From NCBI RefSeq assembly GCF_964213995.1, contig NW_027590338.1, forward strand, positions 62,001 to 126,000: a stretch of 64,000 nt of DNA. The letters run 5' to 3'. Below, in pieces: positions 7,425 to 63,044 of the stretch (positions are counted from its first letter, which is position 1; each line of letters begins with the position of its first letter). A program made the position numbers and the translations under genes. The notes under the pieces were generated by a model, which was not told the DNA's origin, ran no database searches, and saw nothing but the letters and a program-made list of their open reading frames with translations. The DNA is from Mustelus asterias (Eukaryota).

Positions 7425-8243
7425 ATGGAATATCATCAGATTTTGAAGATGGAAGGAGAAAACACTGTTCACACTGGGGAGAAACCGTACACATGTTCTG
7501 TGTGTGGACGAGGCTTCAGTCGATCATCTGGCCTGTCAGAACATAAATGCCGTCGCAATGGGGAGAAACCATGGAAATGTGGGGACTGTGGGAAAGGGTT
7601 CGATTACCCATCCAAGTTGGAAATTCATCAACGAACTCACACTGGGGAGAGACCGTTCACCTGCTCCCAGTGTGGGAAGGGATTCACACACTCATACCAC
7701 TTGCAGACACACCAACACATTCACACAGGTGAGAGGCCGTTCACTTGCTCCCAGTGTGGGAAGGGATTTGCTCACTCCTCCAATCTGCTGAGACACCAGC
7801 GAGTTCACACTGGGGAGAGACCATTCCAATGTTCAGACTGCAAGAAGTGTTATAAAAGTTCTGGGGAACTGATATCCCATCAACGCATTCACACTGATGA
7901 GAGACCCTTTAGGTGTTCTCATTGTGGGACTGGATTCAGACGATCATCTGACCTCACTGTACACCAACGAGTTCACACTGGTGAGAGACCTTTTAACTGC
8001 CCAGACTGTGGGAAGTGCTATAAAAGTTCTGGGGAACTACTGTCCCATCAACGTGTTCACACTGACGTGAGACCGTTCAGGTGCTCTCAGTGTGGGACTG
8101 GGTTCAGACGATCATTTGACCTTAGTGTACACCTGCGAATTCACACTGGGGAGAAGCCATTCCCCTGCTCCGTGTGTGGAAAGGGATTCACTCAGTTATC
8201 CAACCTGCTAATGCACCAGCAAATTCACAAGAAATCTCAGTGA
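7425..8243 (+). CDS. C2H2 zinc-finger protein (8 complete plus 1 degenerate finger)
   Basis: Open ORF with HTGERPF linkers. Splice acceptor TTTCACAG|G near 7341. Start could be 7425 or 7449. Confidence 0.9.
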
Positions 8244-19045: not shown

Positions 19046-19740
19046 CCGCTGAAGGGGAGGAAGTGAGTCCAGTCTGTACATTCCACACATTGTTAGTCCA
19101 GTCAGATAGACATATATCTGTCTGGCAGCCTGCATGGAGATTTCCAGCTCTCTGTGTCCAGGGCAGGAAGCAGTGAGCATGGATCTGTCAATCAGCCTCA
19201 ATCAGCACCTTCAGGAGAATTGGGAGGGTGAATATTAGATACAGCAGAGTGAGAATGGAGGGAGAGTGTGTGGGATGGAGATTTACAGCTTTTGGGGAAT
19301 GAGAGAGAAAGAATGTTTCATAGAAACTAGAACTGTCTGTTCTGAATTTCTATCCTGTACTGACTGATGACTTTTTACAGGATATCAGATGGTGAGGATT
19401 TACAGACAGAAATCGCAAACCAAACATCCCATCAACGTCTGACAGAGTCACTCAATTCATCGGGACCTGAATATCATCGGCCTTTAAATCCAGAGGGAGA
19501 AATGTTTCTCTCAGCTGTCTGTTTCAAGAGATTTTAAGCATCAGTGCAACTGAAAAAGCACCAAGACACACACACACACCTGAGTGAGAGTGTTCCAGTG
19601 CACTGAGTGTGGAAAGAGCTTGAACCAGTTACACAGCCTGAAAATACATCGCAGCATCCACAGCGGGAGAGACTGTACCCGTGTTCTGTGTGAGATTTAA
19701 CTGATTGTTTAACCTGGAGAGTCACAAGGACACCCGCACC

Positions 19741-20751
19741 ATGGAGAAACCGTGGAAATGTGGGGACTGTGGGAAGGGATTCACGGTCCCATCTCGGCTG
19801 GAAGTTCATCAACGCAGTCACACTGGAGAGAGACCGTTCACCTGCTTTGTGTGTGGGAAAGGATTCACTGACTTACCTAATCTGCAGAGACACCAGCGAG
19901 TTCACACTGGGGAGAGACTGTTCATCTGTTCTGACTGTGGGAAAGGATTCACTCAGTTATCCCACCTGCTGAGTCACAATTTCACTCACACCAATGAGAG
20001 ACCCTTTAAATGCTCTGACTGTGGGAGTGGCTTCAAAAGCTCTGGTGAACTGGTGTCCCACCAGCGCATTCACACTGAGGAGAGACCGTTCAGCTGCTCT
20101 CACTGCACAAAGAGATTTAGAACGTCATCCAACCTGCGGACCCACCAGCGAGTTCACACCGGAGAGAAGCCATTTACCTGCTGTGTGTGTGGGATGGTGT
20201 TCACTCAGTTATCACACTTGCTAAGTCACAAAGTCACTCACACAAATGAGAGACACTTTAAATGCTCTGAGTGTGGGAGTGCCTTCAAACATGCTTCAGA
20301 TCTGAGGGTCCACCAGCGCATTCACACCGGGGAGAGACCGTTCAGCTGCTCTCACTGCACAAAGAGGTTTAGAACGTCATCACACTTGCAGGTTCACCAG
20401 CGAGTTCACACTGGGAAGAAACCATTTACCTGCTCTGTGTGCGGGAAGGGATTCACTCAGTCATCTGCCCTGTCGACGCACACAGTCACTCACACCCAGG
20501 AGAGACCCTTTAAATGCTCTGACTGTGGGAGCGACTTCAAAAGCTCTCAGGAATTGATGATCCACCAACGCATTCACACTGAGGAGCGACCGTTCAGCTG
20601 CTCTCACTGCACAAAGAGATTTAGAACAGCATCCAACCTGCAAAGACATCAGCGAGTTCACACTGGGGAGAGACCATTCATCTGCTCTGTCTGTGGAAAG
20701 AGATTCACTGTTTCATCCTCCCTGCAGAGACACCAGCGAGTTCACAAGTGA
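19741..20751 (+). CDS. C2H2 zinc-finger protein (12 fingers)
   Basis: ATG in good Kozak context (CGCACCATGG) and 12 consecutive 28-aa fingers. Exon acceptor TTTTTACAG|G at 19380. Confidence 0.92.
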
Positions 20752-24900: not shown

Positions 24901-25080
24901 AACAGAAATGCTGACTAAACATCTCTGAACTTCTCAACACCCTGTCACTCTGTGATCCTTGTGAAATCTGAAAATAGGCTTTTAGCAGCAAGAATCAAAG
25001 AGCATCAGCGCACTGGAGGCAAAATCGTGCGACCGGTTGACCATCTGTGAGAATGAACAAAACGCAGTCCTGGACGTATT

Positions 25081-25513
25081 TGTTTAACTGGAGTGAGAGT
25101 GGGGGAGAGAGTCTTAGCAGGAGTGCTGAGAGTAAGCTAAGAAGTGATTTAATTATTCATTTATTCATTTAAGGGTATTCCTAGTATATTTCGCGGGCTT
25201 TTTTCAGGGTTTTGAATTGAGGAAGTGAGGTCAGCTGAAGGGGATTCTGGGAGGTTGAGTCTTAGTATAAAAGGCAGTTACCTGGGGGGTTCGATCTCTT
25301 TGTTTAACTGGAGTGAGAGTGGGGGAGAGAGTCTTAGCAGGAGTGCTGAGAGTAAGCTAAGAAGTGATTTAATTATTCATTTATTCATTTAAGGGTATTC
25401 CTAGTATATTTCGCGGGCTTTTTTCAGGGTTTTGAATTGAGGAAGTGAGGTCAGCTGAAGGGGATTCTGGGAGGTTGAGTCTTAGTATAAAAGGCAGTTA
25501 CTTGGGGGGTTCG
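25081..25513 (+). repeat. Two tandem 220-bp monomers in the LINE 5' UTR
   Basis: TGTTTAACTGGAGTGAGAGTGG starts at 25081 and at 25301. Units are almost identical and each has TATAAAAGG near its end. Confidence 0.92.
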
Positions 25514-25688: not shown

Positions 25689-26705
25689 ATGACTGATCGG
25701 CCAGTTCAGTGCTTCCGATGTGGGATGTGGGAGTTTCTGCAAACACCGAGCTTCCCAGAGGTTCACATATGTGCCAGGTGCGTGGAACTGCAGCTCTTGA
25801 GGGACCGTGTTATGGAACTGGAGCTGCAGATCGCTGACCTTAGCCTAATCAGGGAAAATGGGAGAAAAATTGACAGCAGTTATAGGCAACTAGTTACACC
25901 GGGGCATCGGGAGAATGACACGTGGGTCACAGTTAGGAGGAGTAAAGGGCAGAAGGGTAAAGTACAAGGGAGGTCTCCAGAGGTGTCTCAAAATAGGAAG
26001 GGCTTGGTGTCAGGTGTGAGAGGGGAGGGGAGTGGACAGTTAGAAGAAGGGTCACCTGTGGTTGTCCCACTCCAAAACAGGTACATTGTTTTAGATAGTG
26101 TGGAGGAGTGTGCCTCTCCAGGGGTAAGACACAGTGACCAGGTCACTGGCACGCAGTCAGGCTCTGTGGCCCGGAAAGGGAAGAGAGGGGTTAGGAGAGC
26201 GATAGTGGTGGGGGATGCGTCAGTTAGAGGGACAGACAGGCGATTCTGTGGGGGCGAACGGGACTCCAGGATGGTAGTCTGCCTACCTGGTGCTGGGGTC
26301 ACGGATGTCTCCGAGCGGATAGGAGGCATTTTAAAAGGGGAAGATAAAGAAACGGATGTCATTATACACATTGGTGGAAATGACGTAGATAGGAAGAGTA
26401 GGGGGGTCCTAAGGGAGCAATTCAGGGAGTTGGGAAATAGGTTAAAAAGTAGGGTCACTAGGGTGGCCATCTCTGGGCTGCTCCCAATGCCTCGTGCCAG
26501 TGAGGATAAGAATAGGGAGTTGGTTCAAATGAATGCCTGGCTAAAGGACTGGTCCAGGAGGGAGGGCTTTATTTTCATAGACCAATGGGAGGTTTTCAGG
26601 AGAGGATGGCACCTGTACAAGAGGGAGGGGTCACAACTAAGTTGGAAGGGCACAAATATCCTGGCTGGGAGCTTTGCTAATGCAGTTCGGGGGGGTTTAA
26701 ACTAG
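25689..26705 (+). CDS. LINE ORF1: CxxC..CxxC zinc finger / coiled coil plus SGNH esterase-like domain
   Basis: CFRC..CARC, leucine heptads, and AIVVGDASVRGTDRRFC..VCLPGA..VIIHIGGND esterase-fold motifs typical of CR1/L2 ORF1. Confidence 0.9.
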   Translation: MTDRPVQCFRCGMWEFLQTPSFPEVHICARCVELQLLRDRVMELELQIADLSLIRENGRKIDSSYRQLVTPGHRENDTWVTVRRSKGQKGKVQGRSPEVSQNRKGLVSGVRGEGSGQLEEGSPVVVPLQNRYIVLDSVEECASPGVRHSDQVTGTQSGSVARKGKRGVRRAIVVGDASVRGTDRRFCGGERDSRMVVCLPGAGVTDVSERIGGILKGEDKETDVIIHIGGNDVDRKSRGVLREQFRELGNRLKSRVTRVAISGLLPMPRASEDKNRELVQMNAWLKDWSRREGFIFIDQWEVFRRGWHLYKREGSQLSWKGTNILAGSFANAVRGGLN

Positions 26706-29626
26706 TGTGGCAGGGGGGTGGGGATCAAACTATTAGGTCTATAAGTGTGGTGGCTGGGGACGAGCTTGGGGCTGGGACAAGGCTGGCAAAGAAGAAGAGC
26801 ACTCTGGGGGAGGACGACCTCACTGAGCCTGGGGGTCTGGAGTGCTTATACTTCAATGCAAGGAGCGTAGCAGGTAAAACAGACGAACTTGGGGCCTTAA
26901 TGCGCACGAGGAATTTGGATGTGGTTGCGGTGACGGAGACTTGGTTGAAAGAGGGACAGGACTGGCAGCTGAATATTCCAGGGTACAAGTGTTTTAGGCG
27001 AGACAGAGGAGGGGCCAAAAGAGGTGGGGGAGTAGCGGTATTGGTTGGAGAGCATATTACAGCGGTGCAGAGGGAGGACAATTCGGAGGAGTCGTGTAGC
27101 GAGTCACTCTGGGTGGAGCTTAGAAACAGGAAAGGCGCAGTCACTATGTTGGGGGTGTACTACAGGCCCCCCAACAGCCCAAGGGAAGTGGAAGAATGGA
27201 TATGTCAGGAGATACTGGATAGGTGCAGGAAATATAGGGTTGTTGTAGTGGGAGACTTCAATTTCCCTGGTATAGACTGGAAGTCGCTGAGGGCAGGGAC
27301 TCTGGATGGTGAGGCATTTGTAAAATGTGTACAGGAGGGTTCGTTGGAACAATATGTGGACAGCCCAACTAGAGAGGGGGCTATACTGGACCTGGTGCTG
27401 GGGAATGAACCCGGTCAGGTCTTCAAAGTTTTGGTCGGGGAACATGTGGCAAATAGTGACCACAATTCTGTTAGCTTTAGGATAGTGATGGAAAAGGATG
27501 AGTGGTGTCCCAAGGGTAAGGTGTTGGATTGGGGGAAGGCTAACTTTATTGGGATCAGGCAGAAATTGGCAGCTCTTGATTGGGAGAGGCTGTTTGAGGG
27601 TAAATCCACATCTGGTATGTGGCAGTCTTTTAAGGAACGGTTGTTAGGGCTACAGGACAAGCATGTGCCTGTAAAAAAGGATAGGAAGGGTAGGATTAGA
27701 GAACAGTGGATAACCAGGGAAATTGAGGGACTGGTCAAAAGGAAAAGAGAGGCGTATGTTAGGTCCAAGCAGCTAAAAACGGAGGGAGCTCTGGAGGAGT
27801 ATAATGAAAGTAGGAAAATACTCAAACGGGGAATTAGAAGAGCAAAAAGGGGTCACGAAATGTTCTTGGCAGACAGGATTAAGGAGAATCCCAAGGCATT
27901 TTATTCATACGTTAGGAACAAAAGGGTTGTAAGGGAAAAAATCGGACCTCTCAGGGACAAAAGTGGGGACTTATGCTTGGAGCCCAAAGAGGTAGGGGAG
28001 ATCCTAAATGAATACTTTGCGTCGGTATTCACTAAGGAGAGGGATGTGTTGACTGGGAGTGTCTCGGAGGGGAGTGTTGAACCGTTGGAGAAAATCTCCA
28101 TTACAAAGGAGGAAGTGTTAGGTTTGTTAGAGAATATAAAGACTGACAAATCCCCAGGGCCTGATGGAATCTATCCAAGGCTGCTCAGGGAGACGAGAGG
28201 TGAAATAGTTGGGCCTCTGACGCAAATCTTTGTCTCGTCACTGGACACAGGTGAGGTCCCAGAGGATTGGAGGATAGCCAATGTGGTCCCGTTATTTAAG
28301 AAGGGTAAGAAGGATAACCCGGGTAATTATAGGCCGGTGAGCTTGACGTCCGTGGTGGGGAAGTTGTTGGAGAAGATTCTTAAAGATAGGATGTATGCGC
28401 ATTTAGAAAGGAATAAACTCATTAACGATAGTCAACATGGTTTTGTGAGAGGGAGGTCATGCCTCACGAACCTGGTGGTGTTTTTTGAAGAAGTGACCAA
28501 AATGGTTGACGAAGGAAGGGCCGTGGATGTTGTCTATATGGACTTTAGTAAAGCGTTTGACAAAGTCCCTCATGGTAGGCTAGTGAAAAAGGTTGGATCC
28601 CATGGGATAAAGGGGGAGGTGGCTAGATGGGTGGAGAACTGGCTTGGTCATAGAAGACAGAGGGTGGTAGTGGAAGGGTCTTTTTCCGGCTGGAGGCCTG
28701 TGACTAGTGGTGTACCGCAGGGCTCTGTATTGGGACCTCTGCTGTTTGTGATTTATATAAATGATCTGGAAGAAGGAGTAACTGGGGTGATCAGTAAGTT
28801 TGCGGACGACACAAAACTGGCAGGACTTGCAGATAGTGAGGAACATTGTCAGAGGCTACAGAAGGATATAGATAGGCTGGAAATTTGGGCAAGGAAATGG
28901 CAGATGGAGTTCAATGCTGATAAATGCGAAGTGATGCATTTTGGTGGGAATAATGTAGGGAGGAGCTACACGATAAATGGAAGAACCATAAAGGGTGTAG
29001 AGATGCAGAGGGACCTGGGTGTGCAAGTCCACAGATCTTTGAAGGTGACGTCACAGGTGGAGAAGGTGGTGAAGAAGGCATATGGCATGCTTGCCTTTAT
29101 AGGACGGGGCATAGAGTATAAAAGTTGGGGTCTGATGTTGCAGATGTATAGAACGTTGGTTCGGCCGCATTTGGAATACTGCGTCCAGTTCTGGTCGCCA
29201 CACTACCAGAAGGACGTGGAGGCTTTGGAGAGAGTGCAGAGGAGGTTTACCAGGATGTTGCCTGGTATGGAGGGGCTTGGTTATGAGGAGAGATTGGGGA
29301 AACTGGGGTTGTTCTCCTTGGAAAGACGGAGGATGAGGGGAGACTTAATAGAGGTGTATAAAATTATGAAAGGCATAGATAGGGTGAACGGTGGGAAGCT
29401 TTTCCCCGGGTCGGTGGTGACGTTCACGAGGGGTCATAGGTTCAAGGTGAAGGGGGGGAGGTTTAACACAGATATCAGAAGGACATATTTCACACAGAGG
29501 GTCGTGGGGGCCTGGAATGTGTTGCCGGGCAAGGTGGTGGAGGCGGACACACTGGGAACGTTTAAGACTTATCTAGACAGCTATATGAACGGAGTGGGAA
29601 TGGAGGGATACAAAAGAGTGATCTAG
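26705..29626 (+). CDS. LINE ORF2: AP endonuclease plus reverse transcriptase (start uncertain)
   Basis: Endonuclease motifs YFNARS, VTETW, YYRPP, GDFN, LDL and SDH; RT motifs NYRPVSL, QHGF, DFSKAFD, GVPQGSVLGP and FADD. Uninterrupted 973 codons. Confidence 0.95.
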   Translation: MWQGGGDQTIRSISVVAGDELGAGTRLAKKKSTLGEDDLTEPGGLECLYFNARSVAGKTDELGALMRTRNLDVVAVTETWLKEGQDWQLNIPGYKCFRRDRGGAKRGGGVAVLVGEHITAVQREDNSEESCSESLWVELRNRKGAVTMLGVYYRPPNSPREVEEWICQEILDRCRKYRVVVVGDFNFPGIDWKSLRAGTLDGEAFVKCVQEGSLEQYVDSPTREGAILDLVLGNEPGQVFKVLVGEHVANSDHNSVSFRIVMEKDEWCPKGKVLDWGKANFIGIRQKLAALDWERLFEGKSTSGMWQSFKERLLGLQDKHVPVKKDRKGRIREQWITREIEGLVKRKREAYVRSKQLKTEGALEEYNESRKILKRGIRRAKRGHEMFLADRIKENPKAFYSYVRNKRVVREKIGPLRDKSGDLCLEPKEVGEILNEYFASVFTKERDVLTGSVSEGSVEPLEKISITKEEVLGLLENIKTDKSPGPDGIYPRLLRETRGEIVGPLTQIFVSSLDTGEVPEDWRIANVVPLFKKGKKDNPGNYRPVSLTSVVGKLLEKILKDRMYAHLERNKLINDSQHGFVRGRSCLTNLVVFFEEVTKMVDEGRAVDVVYMDFSKAFDKVPHGRLVKKVGSHGIKGEVARWVENWLGHRRQRVVVEGSFSGWRPVTSGVPQGSVLGPLLFVIYINDLEEGVTGVISKFADDTKLAGLADSEEHCQRLQKDIDRLEIWARKWQMEFNADKCEVMHFGGNNVGRSYTINGRTIKGVEMQRDLGVQVHRSLKVTSQVEKVVKKAYGMLAFIGRGIEYKSWGLMLQMYRTLVRPHLEYCVQFWSPHYQKDVEALERVQRRFTRMLPGMEGLGYEERLGKLGLFSLERRRMRGDLIEVYKIMKGIDRVNGGKLFPGSVVTFTRGHRFKVKGGRFNTDIRRTYFTQRVVGAWNVLPGKVVEADTLGTFKTYLDSYMNGVGMEGYKRVI

Positions 29627-30220
29627 TTTGGACCAGGGAGCGGCGCGGGCTAATTGTTCCTGTTTTCTCGTTTCAAGGCTTCATTCTACGATCATCTTGC
29701 TGGTGCCAGTACAGAGTGAGACTGCGGATAGTTGGGAACCTGTCTCGGGGGCAGGGGATTCATATGGTGTTCGTGGAAGTGGAAATGACTAGGGTTGGGA
29801 AGCATTTTCCGATCGGGGCCATTGTGATCTCCTGGACTCGTTTCGATCGCCTCAGGGGGTCGGAGAGGAATTTCCCAGATTTTTTTTTCCCCATATTGGC
29901 CCTGGGGTTTTTCACTCTGGGTTTTCGCCTCTCCCTGGAGATCACATGGTCTGGAATGGGGGGGTGGGGGTAAGTTAATAGGTTGTAATGAACAAAGCAT
30001 CGTAGCTGTGAGGGACAGCTCGGTGGATAGGATATTGGTATGTAGATAGGCTGGAAAATTGGGCGGGGATCCTGGATTCAGGATTCAATCCTGGACCAGG
30101 GAGCGGCGCGGGCTTGGAGGGCCGAAGGGCCTGTTCCTGTGCTGTATTGTTCTTTGTTCTTTGTTCTTTGTTCTTTGTATTTGAGAGCTGAATTGTAACA
30201 GCAGAATCCAACCCCTGGAA

Positions 30221-30895
30221 TCACTTGTGAACTCGCTGGTGTCTCAGCAGGCTGGATGAAACTCTGAATCCCTTCTCACACACAGAGCAGGTGAATGGCC
30301 TCTCCCCGGTGTGAACTCGCTGGTGTGTCCGCAGGGTGGATGAATCTCTGTATACCTTCCCACATTGAGTGCAGCAGAATGGTCTCTCCCCAGTGTGAAC
30401 TCGCTGGTGTGTCCGCAGGTTGCATAACTGAGTGAATCCCTTCCCACACTGAGAGCAGGTGAATGGCTTCTCTCCAGTGTGAACTCGCTGATGTGTTTGC
30501 AGGGCATATAAATCATTGAATCCCTTCCCACACTGAGAGCAGGTGAATGGTCTCACCCCGGTGTGAACTCGTTGATGTACCTGCAGGCTAGATAGCCGAG
30601 TGAACTCCTTCTCACATACAGAGCAGGTGAACGGCCTCTCCCCAGTGTGAACTCGCTGGTGTGACTGCAGGCTGGATAATTGAGTGTATCCCTTCCCACA
30701 TACAGTGCAGGTGAATGGCCTCTCCCCAGTGTGAACTCGCTGGTGTGTCTGCAGGGTGGATACAATACTGAATCCCATCCCACACCAAGGGCAAGTGAAT
30801 GGCCTCTCTCCAGTGTGAATGCGCCGATGAGCTTCAAGATATGATGGGAATCTGTATCTCCTCCCACAGTCCCCACATTTCCACGGTTTATCCAT
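30221..30895 (-). CDS. C2H2 zinc-finger protein (8 fingers)
   Basis: ATG at 30895 (CGCACCATGG), 8 fingers with HTGERPF linkers, acceptor TTACAG|GATATT near 31247. Confidence 0.92.
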
Positions 30896-31789
30896 GGTGC
30901 GGGTGTCCTTGTGACTCTCCAGGTTAAACAATCAGTTAAATCTCACACAGAACACGGGTACAGTCTCTCCCGCTGTGAATGCTGCGATGTATTTTCAGGC
31001 TGTGTAACTGGTTAAAGTTCTTTCCACACTCATTGCACTGGAACACTCTCACTCGGGTGTGTGTGTCTCAGTGCATTTCCAGTCACAGCGATGTTTAAAA
31101 TCTTCTGAAGCTGATTGACTGGGCAAACATTTCTCCTTCTAGATTCAGAGCCTGATGATATTCAGGTCCCAAGGAATCGAGTCACTCTGTCAGATCCAGA
31201 TCTGACATTTTAGATTTCTGTCTGTGATTTCTCCTCATCTAATATCCTGTAATTCAATTTAAGAAAAACATCACAATTCAGTACATGATCAAAATTCAAA
31301 TCAGTCAATTCTAGTTTCTATGGAACATTCTTTAAAGACACAGTCATGGAGCATTAAACTTGCCGAGCAGGGCCTCCCGTATCAGGACACAGGCAGCTGC
31401 TTTTTGAGACTGCCAGCAGTACAGACAAGTCAGAGATAAGGGTGTCCTCAGAAGAAGGAATCATTATGATGGCTCAGGGATGGCTGATGAGATGTAGGAA
31501 TTCTATGATTCTAATGAACATTCTTTCCTCTCTCCTTCCCCCAAAGCTGTGAATCTCCATCCCACACACTCTCCCTCCATTCTCACTCTGCTGTATCTAA
31601 TATTCACCCTCCCAATTCTCCTGAAGGTGCTGATTGAGGCTGATTGACAGATCCATGCTCACTGGTTCGTGTCTTGGACATAGAGAGCTCAGAGTCTCCA
31701 TGCAGGCTGCCAGACAGATATATGTCTCTATGACTGGACTAACAATGTGTGGAATGTACAGACTGGATTCACTTCCTTTCCCTTCAGTT

Positions 31790-33874: not shown

Positions 33875-36800
33875 TCAAATTAAAATGTGATTATTAGGGT
33901 CAATAATGCACCCCAACCCCTGCGGTGCCCAGCGGGCGCGGAAAGCGTCAACCTCGCCCGTGGACGCCGCATGCTCCCTCTCCAGGGACACCTGGCCGCG
34001 AACGTAGCCGCGGTAGAGGGGAAGACAGTCAGGATGGACGGCCCCCTCGATCGCCCGCTGCCTGGACCGGTAAATGGCGCGTTTCGCCAGGCCCAGGAGC
34101 AGGTTCACGAGGAGGTCGCCATCCCGACCCTCCCCTCTCCGCACCGGGTGTCCGTAGATCAGGAGCGTGGGACTGAAGTGCAAACAAAACATCAATAAAA
34201 GGTTCTTCAGGAAAACATAAAGGGAGTGCAGCCTAAGACACTCAACATAGACATGGTCCACGGACTCCACAAGGCCACAGAAAGGGCAGTCTTCGGAGCC
34301 CGTGAACCAGTGAATCCTACGGTTGTGCGGAACTGCTGCATGCATCACCCTCCACCCCAGGTCCCCGACGTAATTGGGGGAGATCCCTCCGTAGAGGGAC
34401 CTCCAGCGGGGACCTCCGCCGCCCGGCGGCAACAAGGCCCGCCAAGGTGTATCCGGGCGACAGGCGAGGAGGCGGTAGTGGAAGGTGTGCAGCAGCAGCC
34501 CGCACAGGAAACGCCTCCGCGCGGTAGAAAAAGGCACGGAGGGCATTTCCGCGAGGCGGCTCAGGCTGTGGGGCACCTCACCCAGGGGAGGGGGCTGAGG
34601 CTTTGGGCCAATGTGGAATTCCGCCCGAACAGGGGAACGCTCGGGCGGGATCCCACCGCACGCCTGCGCCGTCTCAAGTTTGCGTGCAGTTTCGGGGCCG
34701 AGCACGACCGTCCTAAGGTCGAGGATGGCTTTGGCCGCGTGCCAGACGGACGTCCCCGCGCGCTCAGCCAGCACGCGGGGACTCATCCAGCCCGCTCCTC
34801 CGCCATCGAGCACGTCCCCGATTCTGGTCACCCCGGCGTCCACAGCCCCCCTCTCCGCCAGCCACCTGAAGTTATACGGCTGGAGGAGCGGATTCCTGAG
34901 CAGCGGCTCTCGCACGAGAGCCGCTACTCCTGACGGGGGAGAGCTGCGTCGCGAGGCGACCTTGTTCCAGACAGTGAGGAGGTCCTGGTAAAAGACGGGC
35001 AACTCCTGCAGGGTGGTCGAAGCACGCCCCAGTTCGATATGCAGGAGCTGCACGTCATAATTGAGGCCGTGCCACTGGCGGAAGAAATACGTCGCCATGG
35101 CACACCACTGTGGAGGGGGCTCAACGTAAAGGTACCTCTGCAGGGCCTGGAGGCGGAAGGTCGCTATCTGAGTGCGGAGGCACACCAGACCTTGTCCGCC
35201 CTCCTCAAGCGGGAGATACAGGACCGCAGCAGGGACCCAGTGCAGTCGATTGCCCCAGAAGAACCGCACGAGGGTTCTCTGGATATCGGTGACAAAGCCA
35301 GGGGGAGGGGTCAAAGGGACCAGCCGGTACCACAGCATGGAGGCGACCAGCTGGTTTATGACGCGAGCTTGCGCCCCGTAGGACAGCACTCGGAGCAGTC
35401 CTGTCCAGCGACTCAGGCGGGCGGAGACTTTGGCCTCCAGCTCCCGCCAGTTCGCCGGCCAGGATTCCTCGGCTGGGCAGAGATGGGCCCCCAAGTAGAG
35501 GAGGTCGGTCCTGCTCCAGGTGAAAGGCCTGAGCTCCTCCGGAAGGGGGTCCGTCTCCCAAGGACCAACAAGGAGTCCGGAGCACTTGGCCCAGTTGATC
35601 CTGGCGGAGGACGCGGCGGAGTACACCGCCTGGCATTCTCGCATCCTCCGCAGGTCAGCCGGGTCCGTGAACATGAGGAGCACGTCGTCGGCGTAAGCTG
35701 ACAGGACCACCCCTACGTCCGGTCCGCGCAGGACCAAACCTGACAACCTCCTCCGCAAGAGGCGCAGGAATGGCTCCACGCATACGGAATACAGTTGGCC
35801 GGACAAGGGGCAGCCCTGCCGTACTCCTCTCCCGAAGCGAAGGGGCGCCGTCAGGGACCCGTTAACCTTAATCAGACACTCTGCGGCAGAGTACAGTAAT
35901 CGGATCCGGGCGACAAAATGCGTCCCGAACCCGAATGCCCGCAGAGTCCCGAGTAAATACTCGTGCTCCACCCTGTCGAACGCCTTCTCCTGATCTAATG
36001 ACAAGAAGGCGCCCGACAGACCAGCCCTCTGGGTGTGATGGATTAGGTCCCGGACCAGGTGGAGATTGTCATGTATGCAACGGCCCGGGACCGTGTAGGA
36101 CTGGTCAGGGTGGATCAAGTGGTCCAGCACGGATCCAAGGCGTGAAGCCATAGCCCTGGCAAAGATTTTATAATCCGTGCTGAGGAGGGAGACCGGGCGC
36201 CAGTTCTTGAGCAGGTGGAGATCCCCCTTCTTGGGCAGCAGGGCAATGACGGCCCTGCGCCACGAAAGGGGCATCTCCCCGGTAGCGACGCTCTCCCCCA
36301 GGACCCCCGCGTAGTCGCTCCCCAGGACGTCCCAGAACGCCCTGAAGAACTCTACTGTCAGCCCGTCCAGTCCAGGGGCCTTGCCCCGGCTGAGGCCATT
36401 TAGGGCGCCGGTCAGCTCGGCCATGGTGGTAGGGGCCTCGAGCCTGCCGACGCCCTCCGGGCCGACCTGCGGCAGGTCCTCCCACAGAAGTCTGCGGGCA
36501 TCCTCGCTGGACGGATCCGGAGAGAAGAGCGAGGTGTAATACTCCCGGGCAATGGCCCGGATGCCCTCCGGATCCGAGACGGGGGAACCGTCGTCGGCCA
36601 GCAGCGTAAGGAGCTGCTGACGGTTAGCCCGCCCTCTTTCCAGCGAGTAGAAGAAGGGGGAGCCGCGGTCCAGGTCCACCTGGAACTGGAGCCGCGACCT
36701 CACGTACGCGCCGCGAGACCTGGCAAGCTGCAGGTCCCGCAGCGCGTCCTTCTTCTCCCTGTACTCCGAACGCAGGGCCGGGTCCGCGTCAGGCCGACTG

Positions 36801-37768
36801 AGACGTGCCTCCAGGTCGAGCACCTCCTTCTCCAACTCCTCGAGCCTGGATTTCCGCCTCTTTGTCGACCCCCTCGCGTACCCCTGACAGAAGGTACGGA
36901 CGTGAGTCTTGCCCACATCCCACCAGAGCCTCAAGGAGGGGAAGCCTCCCCGCTTCCTTCTCCAGCCGGCCCAGAATCGACGGAACGAGTCCAGGAAGCG
37001 CTCGTCCTCCAGCAGCGTGTTGTTAAAGTGCCAGTACGCGGACCCCCGCCGGATGCGAGACGGCGCAAAGTCCGCCCACACCAGGCTGTGGTCCGTGCTC
37101 GACACCGGCCGCATGGAGACCGAGGACACGCCGGACACGTGCGCCTTCGAAATGTAAAGGCGGTCGAGCCTGGACGCTCCGACTCCAGGCCTCACGAAAG
37201 TGAAGGCGCTGGAGCCAGGATGGAGATGTCTCCAGACGTCCACCAAGTCGTGGGACCCGATCAGGTCCCGCAACTTCACCACCGCCGGAGTGCGCAGCCA
37301 GGGGCCGGTGCGGTCCCGTGCCTCGAGGATGCAGTTGAAATCTCCCCCGAGGATAATGCATTCGCCCCCCGCGATGGTGTCGATGTGAGCGGACACTTTC
37401 TCGTAGAAAGTCGTTTGCTGCGGTCCAGCGGTCGGGGCGTAGACATTCAGCAAGTGAATGACCACGCCCCCCTCACGGACCGTCAAGTGCAGCAACCGGC
37501 CTGGCACCGGCTCCTTGACCCCCAAGATCTCCGGCTTATAACGCGGGGCCAACAAGATAGCCACCCCGCAAGAAGCGAGCGTGAGGTGGCTCATGTAGAC
37601 CCCCCCTCGCCACTCCAGGAGCCATTGGGCTTCGTCTCCCGGAACGGTGTGGGTTTCCTGCAGGAAACACACCGCATACTTCCCGTCACGGAGGACCGAG
37701 AAGTTCTGGAACCTGCGGTGTGGCCCACTGCTGCCGTTGATGTTGAGGCTGGCTATGGTCACCTTCAT
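33875..37768 (-). CDS. Tx1-like ORF2 (AP endonuclease, reverse transcriptase, C-terminal Cys/His motif)
   Basis: SLNING, LQETH, NVYAP, GGDFN, RLD and TDH endonuclease motifs; NWRPVSLL, DQEKAFD, GVRQGCPLS and YADD RT motifs; CPFC..ESVDHVYVEC. 1297 aa, uninterrupted. Confidence 0.95.
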   Translation of the reverse strand: MKVTIASLNINGSSGPHRRFQNFSVLRDGKYAVCFLQETHTVPGDEAQWLLEWRGGVYMSHLTLASCGVAILLAPRYKPEILGVKEPVPGRLLHLTVREGGVVIHLLNVYAPTAGPQQTTFYEKVSAHIDTIAGGECIILGGDFNCILEARDRTGPWLRTPAVVKLRDLIGSHDLVDVWRHLHPGSSAFTFVRPGVGASRLDRLYISKAHVSGVSSVSMRPVSSTDHSLVWADFAPSRIRRGSAYWHFNNTLLEDERFLDSFRRFWAGWRRKRGGFPSLRLWWDVGKTHVRTFCQGYARGSTKRRKSRLEELEKEVLDLEARLSRPDADPALRSEYREKKDALRDLQLARSRGAYVRSRLQFQVDLDRGSPFFYSLERGRANRQQLLTLLADDGSPVSDPEGIRAIAREYYTSLFSPDPSSEDARRLLWEDLPQVGPEGVGRLEAPTTMAELTGALNGLSRGKAPGLDGLTVEFFRAFWDVLGSDYAGVLGESVATGEMPLSWRRAVIALLPKKGDLHLLKNWRPVSLLSTDYKIFARAMASRLGSVLDHLIHPDQSYTVPGRCIHDNLHLVRDLIHHTQRAGLSGAFLSLDQEKAFDRVEHEYLLGTLRAFGFGTHFVARIRLLYSAAECLIKVNGSLTAPLRFGRGVRQGCPLSGQLYSVCVEPFLRLLRRRLSGLVLRGPDVGVVLSAYADDVLLMFTDPADLRRMRECQAVYSAASSARINWAKCSGLLVGPWETDPLPEELRPFTWSRTDLLYLGAHLCPAEESWPANWRELEAKVSARLSRWTGLLRVLSYGAQARVINQLVASMLWYRLVPLTPPPGFVTDIQRTLVRFFWGNRLHWVPAAVLYLPLEEGGQGLVCLRTQIATFRLQALQRYLYVEPPPQWCAMATYFFRQWHGLNYDVQLLHIELGRASTTLQELPVFYQDLLTVWNKVASRRSSPPSGVAALVREPLLRNPLLQPYNFRWLAERGAVDAGVTRIGDVLDGGGAGWMSPRVLAERAGTSVWHAAKAILDLRTVVLGPETARKLETAQACGGIPPERSPVRAEFHIGPKPQPPPLGEVPHSLSRLAEMPSVPFSTARRRFLCGLLLHTFHYRLLACRPDTPWRALLPPGGGGPRWRSLYGGISPNYVGDLGWRVMHAAVPHNRRIHWFTGSEDCPFCGLVESVDHVYVECLRLHSLYVFLKNLLLMFCLHFSPTLLIYGHPVRRGEGRDGDLLVNLLLGLAKRAIYRSRQRAIEGAVHPDCLPLYRGYVRGQVSLEREHAASTGEVDAFRARWAPQGLGCIIDPNNHILI

Positions 37769-37796
37769 GTCAGCAGCTTTGTGCCACCGTCACCAC

Positions 37797-39898
37797 TTAA
37801 CTAGGTGTGTGGGGGGGCGCTGGCGCAATTCTCACCAGTCCACCCCCCACCTTTTCGAGCCTGTGGAGGAACCGCAGTACCCAGCGCCGCTCTATTTTTT
37901 CCAGGCCCGCGGAGGCATGCGAGCATGCCTTCACGGACCGGACGAGCTGCGCCAGGTCCGGCCAGCGGCCGAGGGCTAGCCGGATTATGTCGGAGCGACC
38001 GGAATGGCTACGGATAAAGACACTGAGGTCCTTGGAGGGGATGAGGGACGACTCGGTGGGGGGCACGAGGGAGTCCCCCGCCTCGCTCTGGGCAGACTCT
38101 GAAAGTGTCCCCGTGCCCTCCACCGAGCCGCTGACCTCCTCAGGGCGGTCGCCCCTCGACTCCGAGTCCCCCGCCGCAGGACGTACGGCGGGCGGCACGG
38201 AGCCACCAACTAGCCCTAGCCCCTCCCCGATCCCACCCCCAGGATCGGTGGAGGAGGGGTTCCCCCCGGGCTCACCTTTCCCGGATTGCGGGCCCCCGTG
38301 CGACGGCGGCCCAGCCCCCCCCCCCCCGCCCCAGACGCTTGGACACCCCCCAGGTCCGGTGTATCCTTCGGACTGAGGTTGGGGATGTCCAGCGTCCAAG
38401 GTCGGGACGGAGAGGACGAGTGGATCGTCTCTTCGCCGCCGCCGCACGAGGACATGAACATTGGAGTGTCGCCCCAGTCCCCCGACAGACTGAAGAAGAA
38501 CTCCGGGTTGTAACCGGCCGGGTGGAACGGAACCGTGGGGGCCCCGCTGCCACCCGGCCCCGGAGACTCCTCGCCGGGGGACTGAGGCAACACATGCTTG
38601 GATTTACAGGGTGCCTTGCCCCCTTTTTTCGCGGGACAAGGCACAAAGACAGGTGGGGGCACGGCAGGAGATGACTCACAAGGGGGGAGGGGCACGCAGA
38701 CCTCGAACGCTACGGTGCCCGAGGGGCCCCGCCTCTTTTTGTTAACCTGCCCTCGGGCAGGCGAGGCCCCTCGCCCTCCGCCCCTCTTCGCCTTGCCGCG
38801 CCCCCCCTGCTCTCCCGTCACTTCCCCCCGAGGTGGCGGCGTCGCCAGTTTTGCCGGCTCGGGGTCGCTTACCCCCCCATGCTCGGGCCCATGATCCCGG
38901 GCGCCGGACCCAGCACTAGGCCCCGGAGAGCCCACGGGCCCGGCAGATGGTGGTGGTGGTGGTGGGGGGGGGGCGCAGGTGGAGACTGAGGCGGTCCCCG
39001 AGCCGGCTGCCGGGGTGGTTGGGGTGTTTTCCCTGGGGGCCGGGGTTCCGGTACCCCCCTTCTTTTTTGTAGGTCCCTTCTGGGCCTTTTGGCCGCGCGG
39101 GGGCTCCGCTCCCCCCCCGCCGGCAGCTGAGGTGGCAGCTGCTGCTGGCGTGGCCTCCCCTCGTGGGGGGGCAGATGGTACTCGCTTGGGGGGAGAGGGG
39201 GCTGCGGTGCCAGCTGCGGCCGCCTTGGGTTGGTGGTCGGCGGCCTTGGAGACGGGGCAGTTTTTCCTCACGTGCCCCGCCTCCTTACAGGCATGGCACC
39301 GCACACCGTCCGCGGACCAAAAGACCCGGTACGTGGTCCCCTCGTGGGGGACATTGAAACCTCCCTCCAGTTCATCCTCCCGGGCCAGGCGGACAAAAAC
39401 CTGGCGCCGGAAGGAGTAAATATGGCGGAGGAAGGGGTCCCGAAGGCCGAGCGGGACCGGCTGCACCCCGGACCTGACCTCCCCCAGTAGATGGAGGTGG
39501 GGGAGGAGGAGCTCACTCGGTAGGAAGGGTGGGACGTTCGATATTACTATCTTGTGGGCGGTGGCCTCCAAAGGGTCCACCGCCAGGAACGTCCCGCCCA
39601 CCGTGAGCCCCTTTTCCAGGGCGAGGCGAACCGCCCGCTCGGCCTTCAGGAAGAATACGGCCCGGCCGTACATCTTTGAGGCCGCGACAATGGCTGAGGG
39701 GCCGACAACCCCAGCCATTGCCTTAACGCAGGCCTCGATAGACATGTCGGGGTGGGCGTAGCACTTCACCCCGAGCTGCCGCGTGATTAAAGAGAATGGC
39801 GGCAGGGCCTTGGGAGCGGCGGGGGCTCTGGCAGCCGCCACGCCCGCATAGGTGGGCCGAGAAGGCCCTGCCACCGGCGACGCTGGTGATGTCGCCAT
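37797..39898 (-). CDS. Tx1-like ORF1 (gag-like, CCHC knuckle), split into two overlapping frames
   Basis: 39898-38216 has ASKMYGRAVFFL, ISNVPPF, SFRRQV and CHACKEAGHVRKNC. The amphipathic C-terminal region continues in the -1 frame (38447-37797). A G13 run at 38315-38327 lies in the overlap. Confidence 0.85.
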
Positions 39899-40287
39899 TG
39901 TATCAGGGGAAGTGCTACACCCACCCCGAGACTGCCCAGATGCACGGCAGGGCGTATGTGGGATGGGGAAGATAAGGCAGGGTGGGGTAGGCGGGGAAGG
40001 GTGTAGGTGCTCTCTCCCCGGAGCGAGAGAGGGAGAGAGGAGGTTGGAGGAGCAGGAGGGAGATGAGGCACAAGGCCGGTGCCCCAGTCAGGAGGGAAAA
40101 GGGGAGGGGGTGCCGGTCCCGGGGGCAGCAGTAGTGGGTAGGGGAAATAGGAAAGGTCTTCACCCCCCCCACTGCAGATGGAAAAGAGACAGTCCAAACG
40201 CCTTCGCCCCCCCCCTCTCCTCCAGTCACTCCCTGTCCTCTCTTCCTCCCCCCCCCCCCGGGGAGAGCGCACCCTCCAGAGGCCGGA

Positions 40288-40912
40288 TGGCAGGCAAGCA
40301 GGCAGTCAGGCAGTCCAGACGGCAGGCAGGCTAGACGGCAAGCAGGCAGGCAGGCAGTCCAGACGGCAGACAGCCCAGACAGCAGGCAGGCAGTCCAGAC
40401 GGCAGGCAGGCAGGTAGGTAAGCAGGCCAGACGGCAGGCAGGCAGGTAAGCAGGCCAGACGGCAGGCAGGCAGGTAAGCAGGCCAGACGGCAGGCAGGCA
40501 GGTAAGCAGGCCAGACGGCAGGCAGGCAGGCCAGACGGCAGGCAGGCAGGCCAGACGGCAGGCAGGCAGGTAAGCAGGCCAGACGGCAGGCAGGCAGGTA
40601 AGCAGGCCAGACGGCAGGCAGGCAGGTAAGCAGGCCAGACGGCAGGCAGGCAGGTAAGCAGGCCAGACGGCAGGCAGGCAGGTAAGCAGGCCAGACGGCA
40701 GGCAGGCAGGTAAGCAGGCCAGACGGCAGGCAGGCAGGTAAGCAGGCCAGACGGCAGGCAGGTAAGCAGGCCAGACGGCAGGCAGGCAGGTAAGCAGGCC
40801 AGACGGCAGGCAGGCAGGTAAGCAGGCCAGACGGCAGGCAGGCAGGTAAGCAGGCCAGACGGCAGTCAGGCAGGTAAGCAGGCCAGACGGCAGGCAGGCA
40901 GGCAACAGGCAG
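40288..40912. repeat. Minisatellite in the Tx1 5' UTR, 28-bp unit GGCAGGCAGGCAGGTAAGCAGGCCAGAC
   Basis: About 20 directly visible copies with 20- and 24-bp variants. Confidence 0.95.
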
Positions 40913-41259
40913 GCCGGGCAAGGCAGGCAGCAGCTCACCTCCCTCCTTCCTCCCCGCAGGGAGCGAAAAACAAACAAACCCAACAAAACAAAAACAAAAA
41001 CCGGGCGTCTCCGTGAGCAAAAACGAGAGAAAAAAAAAATAAAGGTACTCACAAAAAAAGAAAAGAAGACAAACCCACAGTTTCCGCCCGGCTCCGACCC
41101 GGGGCCCCCCGCTACTCGGGCGAACGTGAACTCACCCCACCCCAGAAACAAAGTGCAGGCGCTGCCCCAGAGGAGGCACGTTTCAGGCCGTCTGAAGCCC
41201 AATTCTCATTCAGAGAGGAGCAGCAGCAGCTTTGCTGGGCAGGAATGAGCAGCTGAACA

Positions 41260-45950: not shown

Positions 45951-46434
45951 AGGTGATGGTTTTTCCAGGCATCAGCTGCTCTTATCTTTCTGTGGGTGGA
46001 GTTATGGGTTTGGGAGATTCTTTCAAAATTCAAATTCAGTTGCAGATCTATGAAGTTCATCTTTTTTACCCTCTCCTTCACCTCTCTCTCTCCTCCCATG
46101 GAAGCCAGAGTCTTGTGTAAGCCCCGACTGGGCGGCAGGTTCCCTTCCCTAAAGAACATTAGTGAACCAGTTGGGTTTTTATGAGAAACCAGCAGTTTTC
46201 AGGGTCACTTTTTCCTAGCGCTGGCCCCACAAATTACAAGATTAATTTAGCTCAATTTCACAACCTGCCTATGTGTTTTTCTGGGTTCTCTTTTATATTT
46301 CCTTGATTCTGTCTTAAATTCATTTTACAGAATATTTGAAAGGTTCACGATCAGGAAAGTCAAACCAAACATCACATCAAAATCTGACGGAGTCACTCGA
46401 TTCATCAGGATTTGAATATCATCGGCCTTTGAAC

Positions 46435-47304
46435 ATGGAAGCAAAAAGCACCGTTCACGCCAGGGAGAAGCGGTGGAAATGTGTGGACTGTGGGAAGGGA
46501 TTCAGATCCCCATCTGAGCTGGAAATCCATCGACGCAGACACACCGGGGAGAGGCCGTTCATTTGTTCAGTATGTGGGAAGAGATTCGCTCAGTTCATCT
46601 GCCTTCAGCTGCATGAGCGACTCCACACCGGGGAGAGGCCGTTCACCTGCTCGGTGTGTGGAAACGGATTCACTCGCTCATCCCACCTGCTGAAACACCA
46701 GCAAGTTCACACTGACAAGAGAGAGTTTCAATGCTCCAATTGTGAGAAGAGCTTTAAAAGCCCACATGGACTGAGGGAGCACCAGCGCATTCACACCGAG
46801 TACACACTGTTCAGCTGCTCTAAGTGTGGGAAGAGTTTCAGGACAGCAACCCACCTTCAGACACACCAACGAGTTCACACTGACAAGAGACCTTTCAAAT
46901 GTCCAGAGTGCGGGAAGTGCTTTAAAAGTTCTGGTGAACTGATGTCCCATCAGCTTGTTCACACTGAGGAGAGACCGTTCCAGTGCTCTCACTGTGGGAC
47001 TGGGTTCAGGCGATCATCTCATCTCACTGTACATCAGCGAGTTCACACTGGGGAGAAGCCGTTCATCTGCTCCAAGTGTGGGAAGGGATTCAGTCAGTCC
47101 TCCAACCTGCTGACACATCAACAAATTCACACTGAGGTGAGGCCGTTCACCTGTTCTGAGTGTGGAAAGGGATTTGCACGATCATCCCACCTGCTGACAC
47201 ACCAGCGCATTCACACTGGGGAGAGGCCATTCACCTGCTCCGAGTGCGGGAAGAGATTTACCGAATCATCCAATCTGGTGAAACACCAGCGAGTTCACAG
47301 ATGA
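46435..47304 (+). CDS. C2H2 zinc-finger protein (10 fingers); frame open upstream to the acceptor near 46330
   Basis: First ATG at 46435 and 10 intact fingers. The upstream exon-head module is in frame. Confidence 0.92.
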
Positions 47305-52837: not shown

Positions 52838-53827
52838 TCAATTTAGAAGATGGGTTGACTGAGTGAATTCCATCTCACACTCAGAGAAGGTGAACGGTCT
52901 CTCTCCATTGTGAGTGTGTTGGTGTCTCAGCAGGTGGGGTGAGTGAGAAAATCCCTTCCCGCACTCAGAGCAAGTGAACGGTTTCTCCCCGGTGTGAATG
53001 TGCTGGTGTGTTTGCAGGTTGGATGAGCGAGTGAATCCCTTTCCACAGTCAGAGCAGGTGAACGGTCTCTCCCCGGAGTGAACTTGCTGGTGTCTCAGCA
53101 GAACACTTGAGGTCTTAAAGCTCTTCTCACATTCAGAACATTTGAAAGGTTTCTTATCCGAGTGAACAAGTTGGTGTGATCTGAGGCTGGTTAAATAAAT
53201 GAATCCTTTTCCACACAAGGAGCAGGTGAACGACCTCTCCCCGGTGTGAACTCGCTGGTGTTTCTGGAGGCTGGATAACAGAGTGAATCCCTTCCCACAC
53301 ACTGTACATCTGAATGGCCTCTCCTTGTTGTGAACTCGCTGGTGTATCAGCAGATCACTTGTGGTTTTATAACTCTTCGCACATTCAGTACATTTGAAAG
53401 GTCTGTTATCAGTGTGAACCAGTCGGTGTGTAGCGAGGTGGGATGATCGTGTGAATCCCTTCCCACACACAGAGCAGGTGAACGGCCTTTCCCCAGTGTG
53501 AATGCGTTTGTGTTCAATGAGATTCTGTGATCGCTTAAATAACTTCCCACAGTAAGAGCAGCAGAACTGTTTCTCGGTGTGAATAGATTGGTGCATGACC
53601 AGGTCCTCAGGGCTTTTAGAGTTGTGATCAACGTCAGCATGGTTAAAAAGCCTCTCTTCAATGTGAACTTGCTGGTGGGTCAGCAGGTGGGATGACTGAA
53701 TGAATCCTTTCCCGCACATGGAGCAGGTGAATGGTCTCTCCCCAGTGTGACTGCGCCGATGCATTTCCAGCAGCGATGGGTAACTGAATCCCTTCCCACA
53801 GTCCCCACATTTCCATGGTTTCTCCAT
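52838..53827 (-). CDS. C2H2 zinc-finger protein (10 intact plus 2 degenerate fingers)
   Basis: ATG at 53827 (GCACCATGG). Finger 3 lacks its cysteines and the last finger is truncated by a stop. Confidence 0.88.
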   Translation of the reverse strand: MEKPWKCGDCGKGFSYPSLLEMHRRSHTGERPFTCSMCGKGFIQSSHLLTHQQVHIEERLFNHADVDHNSKSPEDLVMHQSIHTEKQFCCSYCGKLFKRSQNLIEHKRIHTGERPFTCSVCGKGFTRSSHLATHRLVHTDNRPFKCTECAKSYKTTSDLLIHQRVHNKERPFRCTVCGKGFTLLSSLQKHQRVHTGERSFTCSLCGKGFIYLTSLRSHQLVHSDKKPFKCSECEKSFKTSSVLLRHQQVHSGERPFTCSDCGKGFTRSSNLQTHQHIHTGEKPFTCSECGKGFSHSPHLLRHQHTHNGERPFTFSECEMEFTQSTHLLN

Positions 53828-62420: not shown

Positions 62421-63044
62421 TTAAATAGACTGTCTGGCAGCCTGCATGGAGATTTTCAGCTCTCTGTGTCCAGTGAGCATGGATCTGTCAATCAGCACTT
62501 TCAAGAGAATATGGAGGGTGAATATTAGATACAGCAGAGTGAGAATGGAGGGAGAGTGTGTGGGATGGAGATTTACAGCTTTTGGGGAATGGAAGAGGAA
62601 AGAATGTTCCATTGAAACTAGAATTGTCTGTTCTGAATTTCTATCCTGTATTGACTGTGATGACTTTTGTAAACTCCTTTTACAGGATATCAGAAGTTGA
62701 GGATTTACAGACAGAAATCTCAGACCAAACATCACGTCAACATCTGACAGAGTCACTCAATTCATCGGGACCTGAATATCATCGGCCTTTGAATCTAGAA
62801 GGAGAAATGTTTCTCTGTTCTGTCTGCTTCAGGAGATTTTAAACATCAGTGTGACTGGAAAGCACTGAGACATACACACCCGAGTGAGAGTGTTCCAGTG
62901 CACTGCGTGTGGAAAATGCTTCAGTTGCACAGCCTGAAAAAACATCGCAGCATTCACAGCGGGGAGAGACTGTACCCATGTTCTGTGTGTGGATGAGGTT
63001 TCAACTGATTGTCCGACCTGGAGAGTCACAAGGACACCTGCACC

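Follow-up and report, generated by a model that had tools for sequence, protein, structure and literature searches.

We analysed a stretch of 64,000 nt from Mustelus asterias (contig NW_027590338.1, positions 62,001 to 126,000), called the window below; positions are those of the window. On its plus strand, from ~25080 to ~30180, it carries a full-length long interspersed nuclear element (LINE), which we take to be a CR1 element. The first open reading frame (ORF1) of this element ends in the slippery heptamer U_UUA_AAC, and the second (ORF2) lies in the -1 frame. Programmed -1 frameshifting yielding an ORF1-ORF2 fusion is the best explanation of the sequence comparisons reported here, and we consider it quite probable.

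Slippery heptamer at the end of ORF1

ORF1 (25689..26705, plus strand, 338 aa) ends with the codons CGG GGG GGT TTA AAC TAG. Because the last of these read GGT TTA AAC TAG, the heptamer T_TTA_AAC (26696..26702, plus strand) is in X_XXY_YYZ register and stands directly before the stop codon (TAG, 26703..26705, plus strand), as in Rous sarcoma virus, where the stop directly follows the slip heptamer. The final ORF1 codons encode Leu-Asn, and their -1 reading gives Phe-Lys-Leu. This -1 frame is the ORF2 frame, which is open from 26681 to 29626 (981 codons). It is closed upstream by a TAA (26678..26680, plus strand), which limits the overlap of the two ORFs to 26681-26702, that is, to 22 nt with the stop not counted. 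The original prediction, made from the letters of the sequence, had described this junction; its coordinates, the register, an overlapping G_GGT_TTA, the -1 phase of ORF2, the closing TAA and an overlap of ~22 nt were all confirmed.

As a control for chance, we examined all stop triplets on both strands and in all frames of the window. A canonical heptamer stood directly before 21 of 5426 (0.39%). TTA is a rare Leu codon in the element (9 of the 87 Leu codons in ORF2). Four heptamers have been named as the most shifty on mammalian ribosomes, and U_UUA_AAC, G_GGA_AAC and A_AAA_AAC are among them (PMC5009743).

The overlapping second heptamer, G_GGT_TTA (26693..26699, plus strand), is also in register in the window and fits the Gly-Leu-Asn ends seen in sharks. 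It was rejected as the main slip site because the amniote-type loci described below lack it. The part of the original prediction that concerned this heptamer thus held for the window, with no conservation outside some shark lineages.

ORF2 start and linker

The linker in the ORF2 frame (26702..26836, plus strand) has neither stops nor an AUG, and from the ORF1 stop to the endonuclease the window has no ATG in any frame. The apurinic-type endonuclease of ORF2 follows (26837..27463, plus strand). An AlphaFold model of the 981-residue ORF2 frame (mean predicted local distance difference test score, pLDDT, 83) predicted residues 1-48 to be disordered (pLDDT <50) and residues 53-59 to form the first beta strand of the endonuclease, which ends in Asn59 (26855); the Pfam endonuclease domain begins at residue 57. 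Asn59 was invariant in 43 of 43 aligned ORF2 proteins. An ungapped alignment to the L1 endonuclease placed it two residues off Asn14 of L1, and we infer that the two residues are equivalent.

The first in-frame ATG of ORF2 (26900) encodes Met74, in the helix after beta strand 1, and lies past the endonuclease Asn, as originally noted. In the model, a start at Met74 would remove beta strand 1 and the invariant Asn; hence no usable AUG is available in the window copy. With overlapping ORFs and no AUG before Asn59, the junction does not have the L1-type layout of non-overlapping ORFs, a spacer and an ORF2 start just before the endonuclease.

Only in the -1 frame was the linker without stops: there were 0 stops in 47 codons in the window, in 33 in locus L003 and in 84 in locus L004, against 1-9 in the other frames. 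Among 122 ORF2-type proteins (120 ORF2 homologues and two run-on ORF1 proteins), 26 had Phe-Lys-Leu followed by 71-110 open residues up to the endonuclease. A search for natural ORF1-ORF2 fusion proteins of 661-2000 aa found none, which is weak evidence.

Conservation of the ORF1 end in proteins

Among 24 close ORF1 homologues, 20 ended in Leu-Asn, 1 in Ile-Asn and 1 three residues past Leu-Asn. The remaining 2 continued via Phe-Lys-Leu, as the heptamer reads in the -1 frame. We pooled the query, these 24 homologues and the best 150 of 1162 distant representatives (174 proteins). A natural end, defined as one 15-40 residues past the esterase D-x-x-H motif, was present in 126 of the 174; the remaining 48, judged truncated, fused or run-on, were not counted. 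At 92 of the 126 natural ends, the final dipeptide was encodable by an XXY-YYZ hexamer (Leu-Asn 73, Gly-Asn 14, Lys-Asn 2, Phe-Leu 2, Gly-Phe 1). As a control, dipeptides further upstream were counted in this way: 30 of 126 fitted at an offset of one residue, and 2-14 of 126 at offsets of 2-12. The three tails seen most often match U_UUA_AAC, G_GGA_AAC and A_AAA_AAC. Named carriers of the Leu-Asn end were rays, sharks, a lizard, a tegu, a snake, turtles and a sturgeon.

A slip site also constrains the wobble position just upstream: the codon before the dipeptide must have T as its last base when the dipeptide is Leu-Asn, and G when it is Gly-Asn. Before Leu-Asn, residues with pyrimidine-only wobble numbered 23 and those with purine-only wobble 1; before Gly-Asn, the numbers were 0 and 9 (Fisher test, 2.6e-7). 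When kinship was controlled for by single-linkage clustering of the esterase core, the counts at 60% identity were 13:1 and 0:6 (p 1.8e-4). On a quick tree of the esterase with the tail excluded, from which five rows with short cores were omitted, Gly-Asn, Lys-Asn and one Leu-Asn tail were intermixed in one weakly supported group.

As a separate observation on the proteins, several of the ORF1 ends outside these dipeptide classes (P0055, P0057, P0093, P0102, P0105, P0136, P0149, P0159, P0160, P0085 and P0141) have Phe-Phe or Phe-Leu 1-3 residues before the stop, which fits U_UUU_UUC/A, or end in Glu-Asn, which fits G_GAA_AAC.

Conservation of the junction in DNA

A metagenome scan gave at least 40 DNA loci, none of those listed being shark-type, and a genome-contig scan gave 4; the 44 listed loci were examined. 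Many of the metagenome loci were bacterial hydrolases or stopped short of the ORF1 end, and the 4 genome-contig matches were bacterial SGNH hydrolases. The comparison of junction DNA covers shark and amniote-type copies. Eight amniote-type copies that include the ORF1 end were present among the matches listed. Four of these, L003, L004, L011 and L013, kept TTTAAAC-TAG, and L003 was the only one intact on both sides. The exact pattern of TTTAAAC-TAG with a G-run at +10 was found in 4 of the 44 loci, again among the matches listed; these are L003, L004, L011 and L013. In an alignment of the window with six amniote-type loci, the invariant columns concentrated at the heptamer, the stop and the G-run, and the stop was TAG in all seven junctions.

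In assembled contigs from four public sequencing runs with different organism codes, the 40 variant rows listed, of 81 in all, included none within 26693-26706. Many contigs ceased to match at 26722 and some began at 26686-26688, so the block 26686-26722 is what divergent subfamilies share. No relatives were found in viral contigs (four scans) or in plasmids. The heptamer and the -1 phase are thus kept in relatives, in homologous proteins as well as in amniote-type loci. This comparative evidence supports the proposal of the original prediction that ORF2 is made as a frameshift fusion; from it we infer the slippage itself.

Candidate downstream stimulator

A G-run (26713..26723, plus strand) starts 10 nt past the heptamer and is a candidate 3' stimulator, which might act as a protein-binding site, a G-quadruplex or an mRNA-channel element. 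All seven aligned junctions (the window and six loci) have a run of at least 4 G at the same offset, exactly 10 nt after the heptamer position. By G4Hunter score in 25-nt windows, the post-stop G-run ranks in the top 0.5% for the element. The original prediction had suggested a G-quadruplex here. A G-run at fixed spacing was indeed kept, but a quadruplex near the stop was predicted in only two of the seven junctions, those of the window and L004, and the further G-runs cited past the first one are not conserved and lie in a strand rich in G. Among the Gly codons of ORF2, GGG is used most (43/102), and the conserved Gly codons of the G-run could reflect protein constraint.

Structural stimulators have a reported spacing of 5-9 nt, against 11-14 nt at arterivirus and cardiovirus sites (PMC5009743); the 10 nt found here falls between these ranges. 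Natural quadruplex stimulators of frameshifting were described as unknown as of 2016 in the part of that review dealing with them (PMC5009743).

Other junctions in sister lineages

In three loci, ORF2 is in frame with ORF1 past a single TGA followed by CTA (ORF1 stops at L024:2394, L037:2165 and L039:743), and 75-132 codons are free of stops in that frame only. UGACUA is a type II readthrough context (PMC13517186). These junctions are candidates for stop-codon readthrough, which would be a second route to an ORF1-ORF2 fusion. ORF2 is likewise in frame in L002, with TGA TAT (L002:1827), while in L027 and L031, placed with L037 and L039 by the esterase tree, the sequence is TGA CCA. At a single locus, L014 (L014:960-1154), ORF1 ends in GTT TAG C, the open frame of ORF2 is +1, and neither the linker nor the early endonuclease has an ATG; this could be a +1 shift at the stop or a mutated copy. 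Taken together, the junction sequences suggest that the conserved trait may be the fusion itself, reached via different recoding routes.

Evaluation of alternative explanations

Several observations weigh against frameshifting, as do some of the start codons and clustering results considered below. A slippery hexamer does not fit 34 of the 126 natural ORF1 ends. Because the query itself ends in Leu-Asn, the ranking favours Leu-Asn hits; such a bias cannot produce the result of the wobble test. The heptamers G_GGA_AAC and A_AAA_AAC were deduced from the protein sequences of the Gly-Asn and Lys-Asn carriers. Four of the eight amniote-type loci among the matches listed (L005, L006, L019 and L020) deviate at the junction, all with other lesions. 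Most of the 26 proteins with Phe-Lys-Leu belong to one stork family. No stable hairpin was found after the site (z-scores +1.35 to -0.89), the junctions have no shared fold (consensus -2 kcal/mol, no compensatory pair), and there was no Rfam match at the junction. A hairpin stimulator was rejected for these reasons, the folding tools used being ones that do not predict pseudoknots.

Termination followed by reinitiation, as in L1 and SART1, would produce ORF2 by restart after the UAG at a near-cognate codon (the GUG overlapping the stop, or an N-T-G that follows the stop by 2 nt in amniote copies) or at a linker AUG, and the heptamer would be a relic or have another role. We regard this as unlikely, even though reinitiation is the sole mechanism that the relevant sections of PMC5972666, PMC2881922 and PMC3894237 describe for the LINEs studied and L1 does not require its ORF2 AUG (PMC5009743). 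The window linker offers 13 near-cognate codons. The codon 2 nt past the stop in the -1 frame is ATG in L004, L006 and L013, TTG in L011 and GTG in L020; it is, however, TCG in L003, and the matching residue in the 26 proteins with Phe-Lys-Leu is Ser (19), Leu (6) or Val (1), never Met. Every one of these 26 proteins has a Met in the linker, but the position of the first varies from 18 to 93 codons, and the codons upstream of it nevertheless stay free of stops. The GTG at 26705, which the original prediction had named as the rival to the heptamer, was not conserved: the variant G26707A, which turns GTG into GTA and creates an out-of-frame ATG, accounted for 49% (X1) and 80% (X12) of the summed contig depth, and the GTG was altered in one X7 contig and in no X8 contig. 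We rejected it as a conserved start because it is lost in many contigs. Nor is the conserved UAAUG of SART1 present, since the window has UAGUG, whose GUG is lost by G26707A, and the amniote loci have GGT or GAT there; a TAATG-like junction was seen in one X12 contig. Reinitiation would also leave the heptamer, its synonymous codons and the swaps among Leu-Asn, Gly-Asn and Lys-Asn unexplained. Some families may reinitiate, but no start is conserved, whereas the heptamer and the open frame upstream of the Met codons are.

The Leu-Asn end might instead be kept for protein reasons, as part of the last esterase helix, with the -1 phase and the short overlap inherited without function and ORF2 expressed, for example, via an internal entry site or a shorter RNA. 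Many branches of the esterase tree carry Leu-Asn, so shared ancestry contributes, and with coarser clustering the wobble test was not significant (5:1 and 0:2, p 0.11, at 50%; 4:1 and 0:1, p 0.33, at 45%), because few clusters were left. Yet the residues just upstream vary freely, and tails differ in length past D-x-x-H but still finish in Leu-Asn, Gly-Asn or Lys-Asn. Chemically, Gly, Lys and Leu cannot replace one another, whereas their codons can, as slip sites, and the synonymous codons of the heptamer are fixed in the intact DNA loci. This explanation therefore seemed improbable to us. ORF2 would also be brought into frame by splicing, with an acceptor shortly before the heptamer, as several automatic bird gene models assume. 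In some stork gene models, unrelated or ORF1 sequence is joined at the junction to Ser-Phe-Lys-Leu, and the window has a CAG at 26683-26685. However, these gene models are predictions, the CAG varies between contigs, the amniote junctions are rich in purines and have no pyrimidine tract, and a spliced RNA would fail to copy the full element; we consider splicing very improbable.

Other features of the element and its surroundings

The 5' region of the element (25079..25513, plus strand) consists of two identical 215-nt tandem copies (25079-25293 and 25299-25513), which, judged from their position, are probably a repeat of the 5' untranslated region (UTR). ORF1 encodes a C-x2-C-x16-C-x2-C zinc finger (25710-25781), a linker and an SGNH/GDSL esterase domain, which matched Lipase_GDSL_2 (E 1.3e-8) and OSK (E 9e-7). 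The reverse transcriptase (RT) domain of ORF2 lies at 28307..28972 (plus strand; RVT_1, E 2.8e-37), and the ORF2 frame ends at 29626. The 3' region (29627..30178, plus strand) contains a 23-nt direct repeat and then a short tandem 7-nt tail (~30147-30178). CR1-clade LINEs end at the 3' side in short tandem repeats instead of poly(A). The element agrees with this clade in the apurinic-type endonuclease followed by RT in ORF2, in the zinc finger and SGNH esterase of ORF1 and in the tandem-repeat 3' tail. Its nearest named homologues are repeat proteins of sharks, rays and birds, which we presume to be CR1. No other copy bearing the junction was found in the window.

The catalytic Ser and His of the esterase are substituted in the window copy (26211-26219 and 26625-26639). 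P0002 likewise lacks the Ser, and P0004 and P0006 lack both; all of them form one well-supported clade with the window copy, which, to judge from these sequences, may be a shark subfamily that has an inactive esterase and retains the slip site. Just past the ORF2 stop, a perfect 23-nt direct repeat (29629-29651 and 30092-30114) flanks ~440 nt, possibly an insertion with target duplication in the 3' UTR.

Elsewhere in the window, a second GC-rich LINE lies on the minus strand (33875-40087), with apparently intact ORFs (1304 and 623 codons from stop to stop); from its motifs we take it to be Tx1/L1-like. Tandem repeats lie upstream of it (~40300-41200). A cluster of C2H2 zinc-finger arrays stands among decayed CR1-like fragments (7425-8243, 19705-20751, 30221-30931 on the minus strand, 46318-47304, 52838-53848 and 63009-63719). 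Two LINE ORF2 proteins in our protein matches, P0201 and P0320, are filed under bacterial names and most likely represent host contamination of those assemblies.

Proposed mechanism and comparison with known systems

The element appears to be a young, full-length CR1 LINE of a cartilaginous fish. Under the frameshifting model, most ribosomes translating ORF1 would terminate at the UAG, and a minority would slip back one base on U_UUA_AAC, with tRNA-Leu and tRNA-Asn re-pairing on UUU and AAA. The slipped ribosomes would read through the disordered linker into the endonuclease and the reverse transcriptase, giving an ORF1-ORF2 fusion at a low fixed ratio, as with Gag-Pol. The pausing probably would come from the adjacent stop codon and the G-rich element 10 nt downstream, not from a hairpin. 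The fusion may serve to tether the enzyme to the ORF1 particle in cis.

If this is true, the real CR1 enzyme is an ORF1-ORF2 fusion of ~1310 residues and not a free ORF2 protein, and current CR1 ORF2 starts are therefore misplaced. The fusion would provide a simple basis for cis preference and for the protein ratio, it would represent convergence with retroviral gag-pol, and it would imply an unusual, unstructured frameshift stimulator kept from sharks to birds. A broader proposal, which we advance tentatively and would not yet call probable, is that throughout the animals, LINEs with an esterase ORF1, among them CR1 as the most abundant repeat in birds, reptiles and sharks, produce their RT as a Gag-Pol-like fusion by programmed recoding, the vertebrate site being stimulated by the G-rich element 10 nt downstream as a natural G-quadruplex or a protein-bound stimulator; this assumes that the original CR1 papers are silent on the point.

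The mechanism is familiar from viruses, and here it would operate in a major vertebrate LINE clade. No earlier report of a slip site or programmed frameshift in CR1 was found in the open-licence full-text literature, a search that did not extend to the original CR1 descriptions. The ORFs of the turtle CR1 element have reportedly been described as overlapping and those of the chicken element as closely spaced, and a frameshift may be mentioned there. Reviews give reinitiation for L1 and SART1 (PMC5972666, PMC10275272, PMC2881922, PMC5009743, PMC3894237), and the translation of LINE ORF2 has been termed an open question (PMC3894237). The sections of PMC4255032, PMC6609765, PMC5408684 and PMC7175516 closest to the subject contained no relevant statement.

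The closest known elements are the vertebrate CR1 elements with an esterase ORF1, chicken CR1 and turtle PsCR1 (PMC3905857, PMC2734521), which share the zinc finger and SGNH esterase in ORF1 and the endonuclease and RT in ORF2; homologues of the window element are named from rays, sharks, sturgeon, lizards, a snake, turtles and birds. The passages of PMC3905857 and PMC2734521 on these elements mention no ORF overlap, programmed frameshifting or junction signal, and those of PMC2734521 use frame-shift only for mutations. Among other retroelements, TRE5-A and TRE3-A of Dictyostelium are likewise non-LTR (long terminal repeat) elements carrying an endonuclease of the apurinic/apyrimidinic (APE) type that are stated to need a -1 frameshift for ORF2 (PMC5911963). 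They differ from CR1 in host and element family, and the account of them there gives no slip site or conservation across species (PMC5911963). A +1 frameshift or readthrough between ORF1 and the RT ORF has been suggested from consensus sequences for Paramecium LINEs (PMC5405496), and a frameshift with a pseudoknot before the RT ORF for Penelope-like elements (PMC8557442); unlike CR1, these belong to other clades and have other signals. In HeT-A, a frameshift has been stated or suggested within gag (PMC5009743).

Human L1 and silkworm SART1 resemble the window element in having a bicistronic LINE RNA and a low ORF2 level that depends on ORF1 translation (PMC5972666, PMC3894237). These two reinitiate, L1 across a 63-nt spacer and SART1 at a UAAUG stop-start, and make a free ORF2 protein (PMC5972666, PMC3894237), whereas the window CR1 has overlapping ORFs, lacks an available AUG and carries a long open linker ahead of the endonuclease. 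The junction is more like those of retroviral gag-pol and coronavirus ORF1a/1b, which have an in-register U_UUA_AAC, a downstream ORF at -1 and a structural protein fused to a polymerase (PMC5009743). In contrast to these, no hairpin was found 5-9 nt downstream in the window element, which has no protease to cleave the fusion. The G-run spacing of CR1, 10 nt, is closer to that of the protein-stimulated arterivirus and cardiovirus sites, 11-14 nt (PMC5009743).

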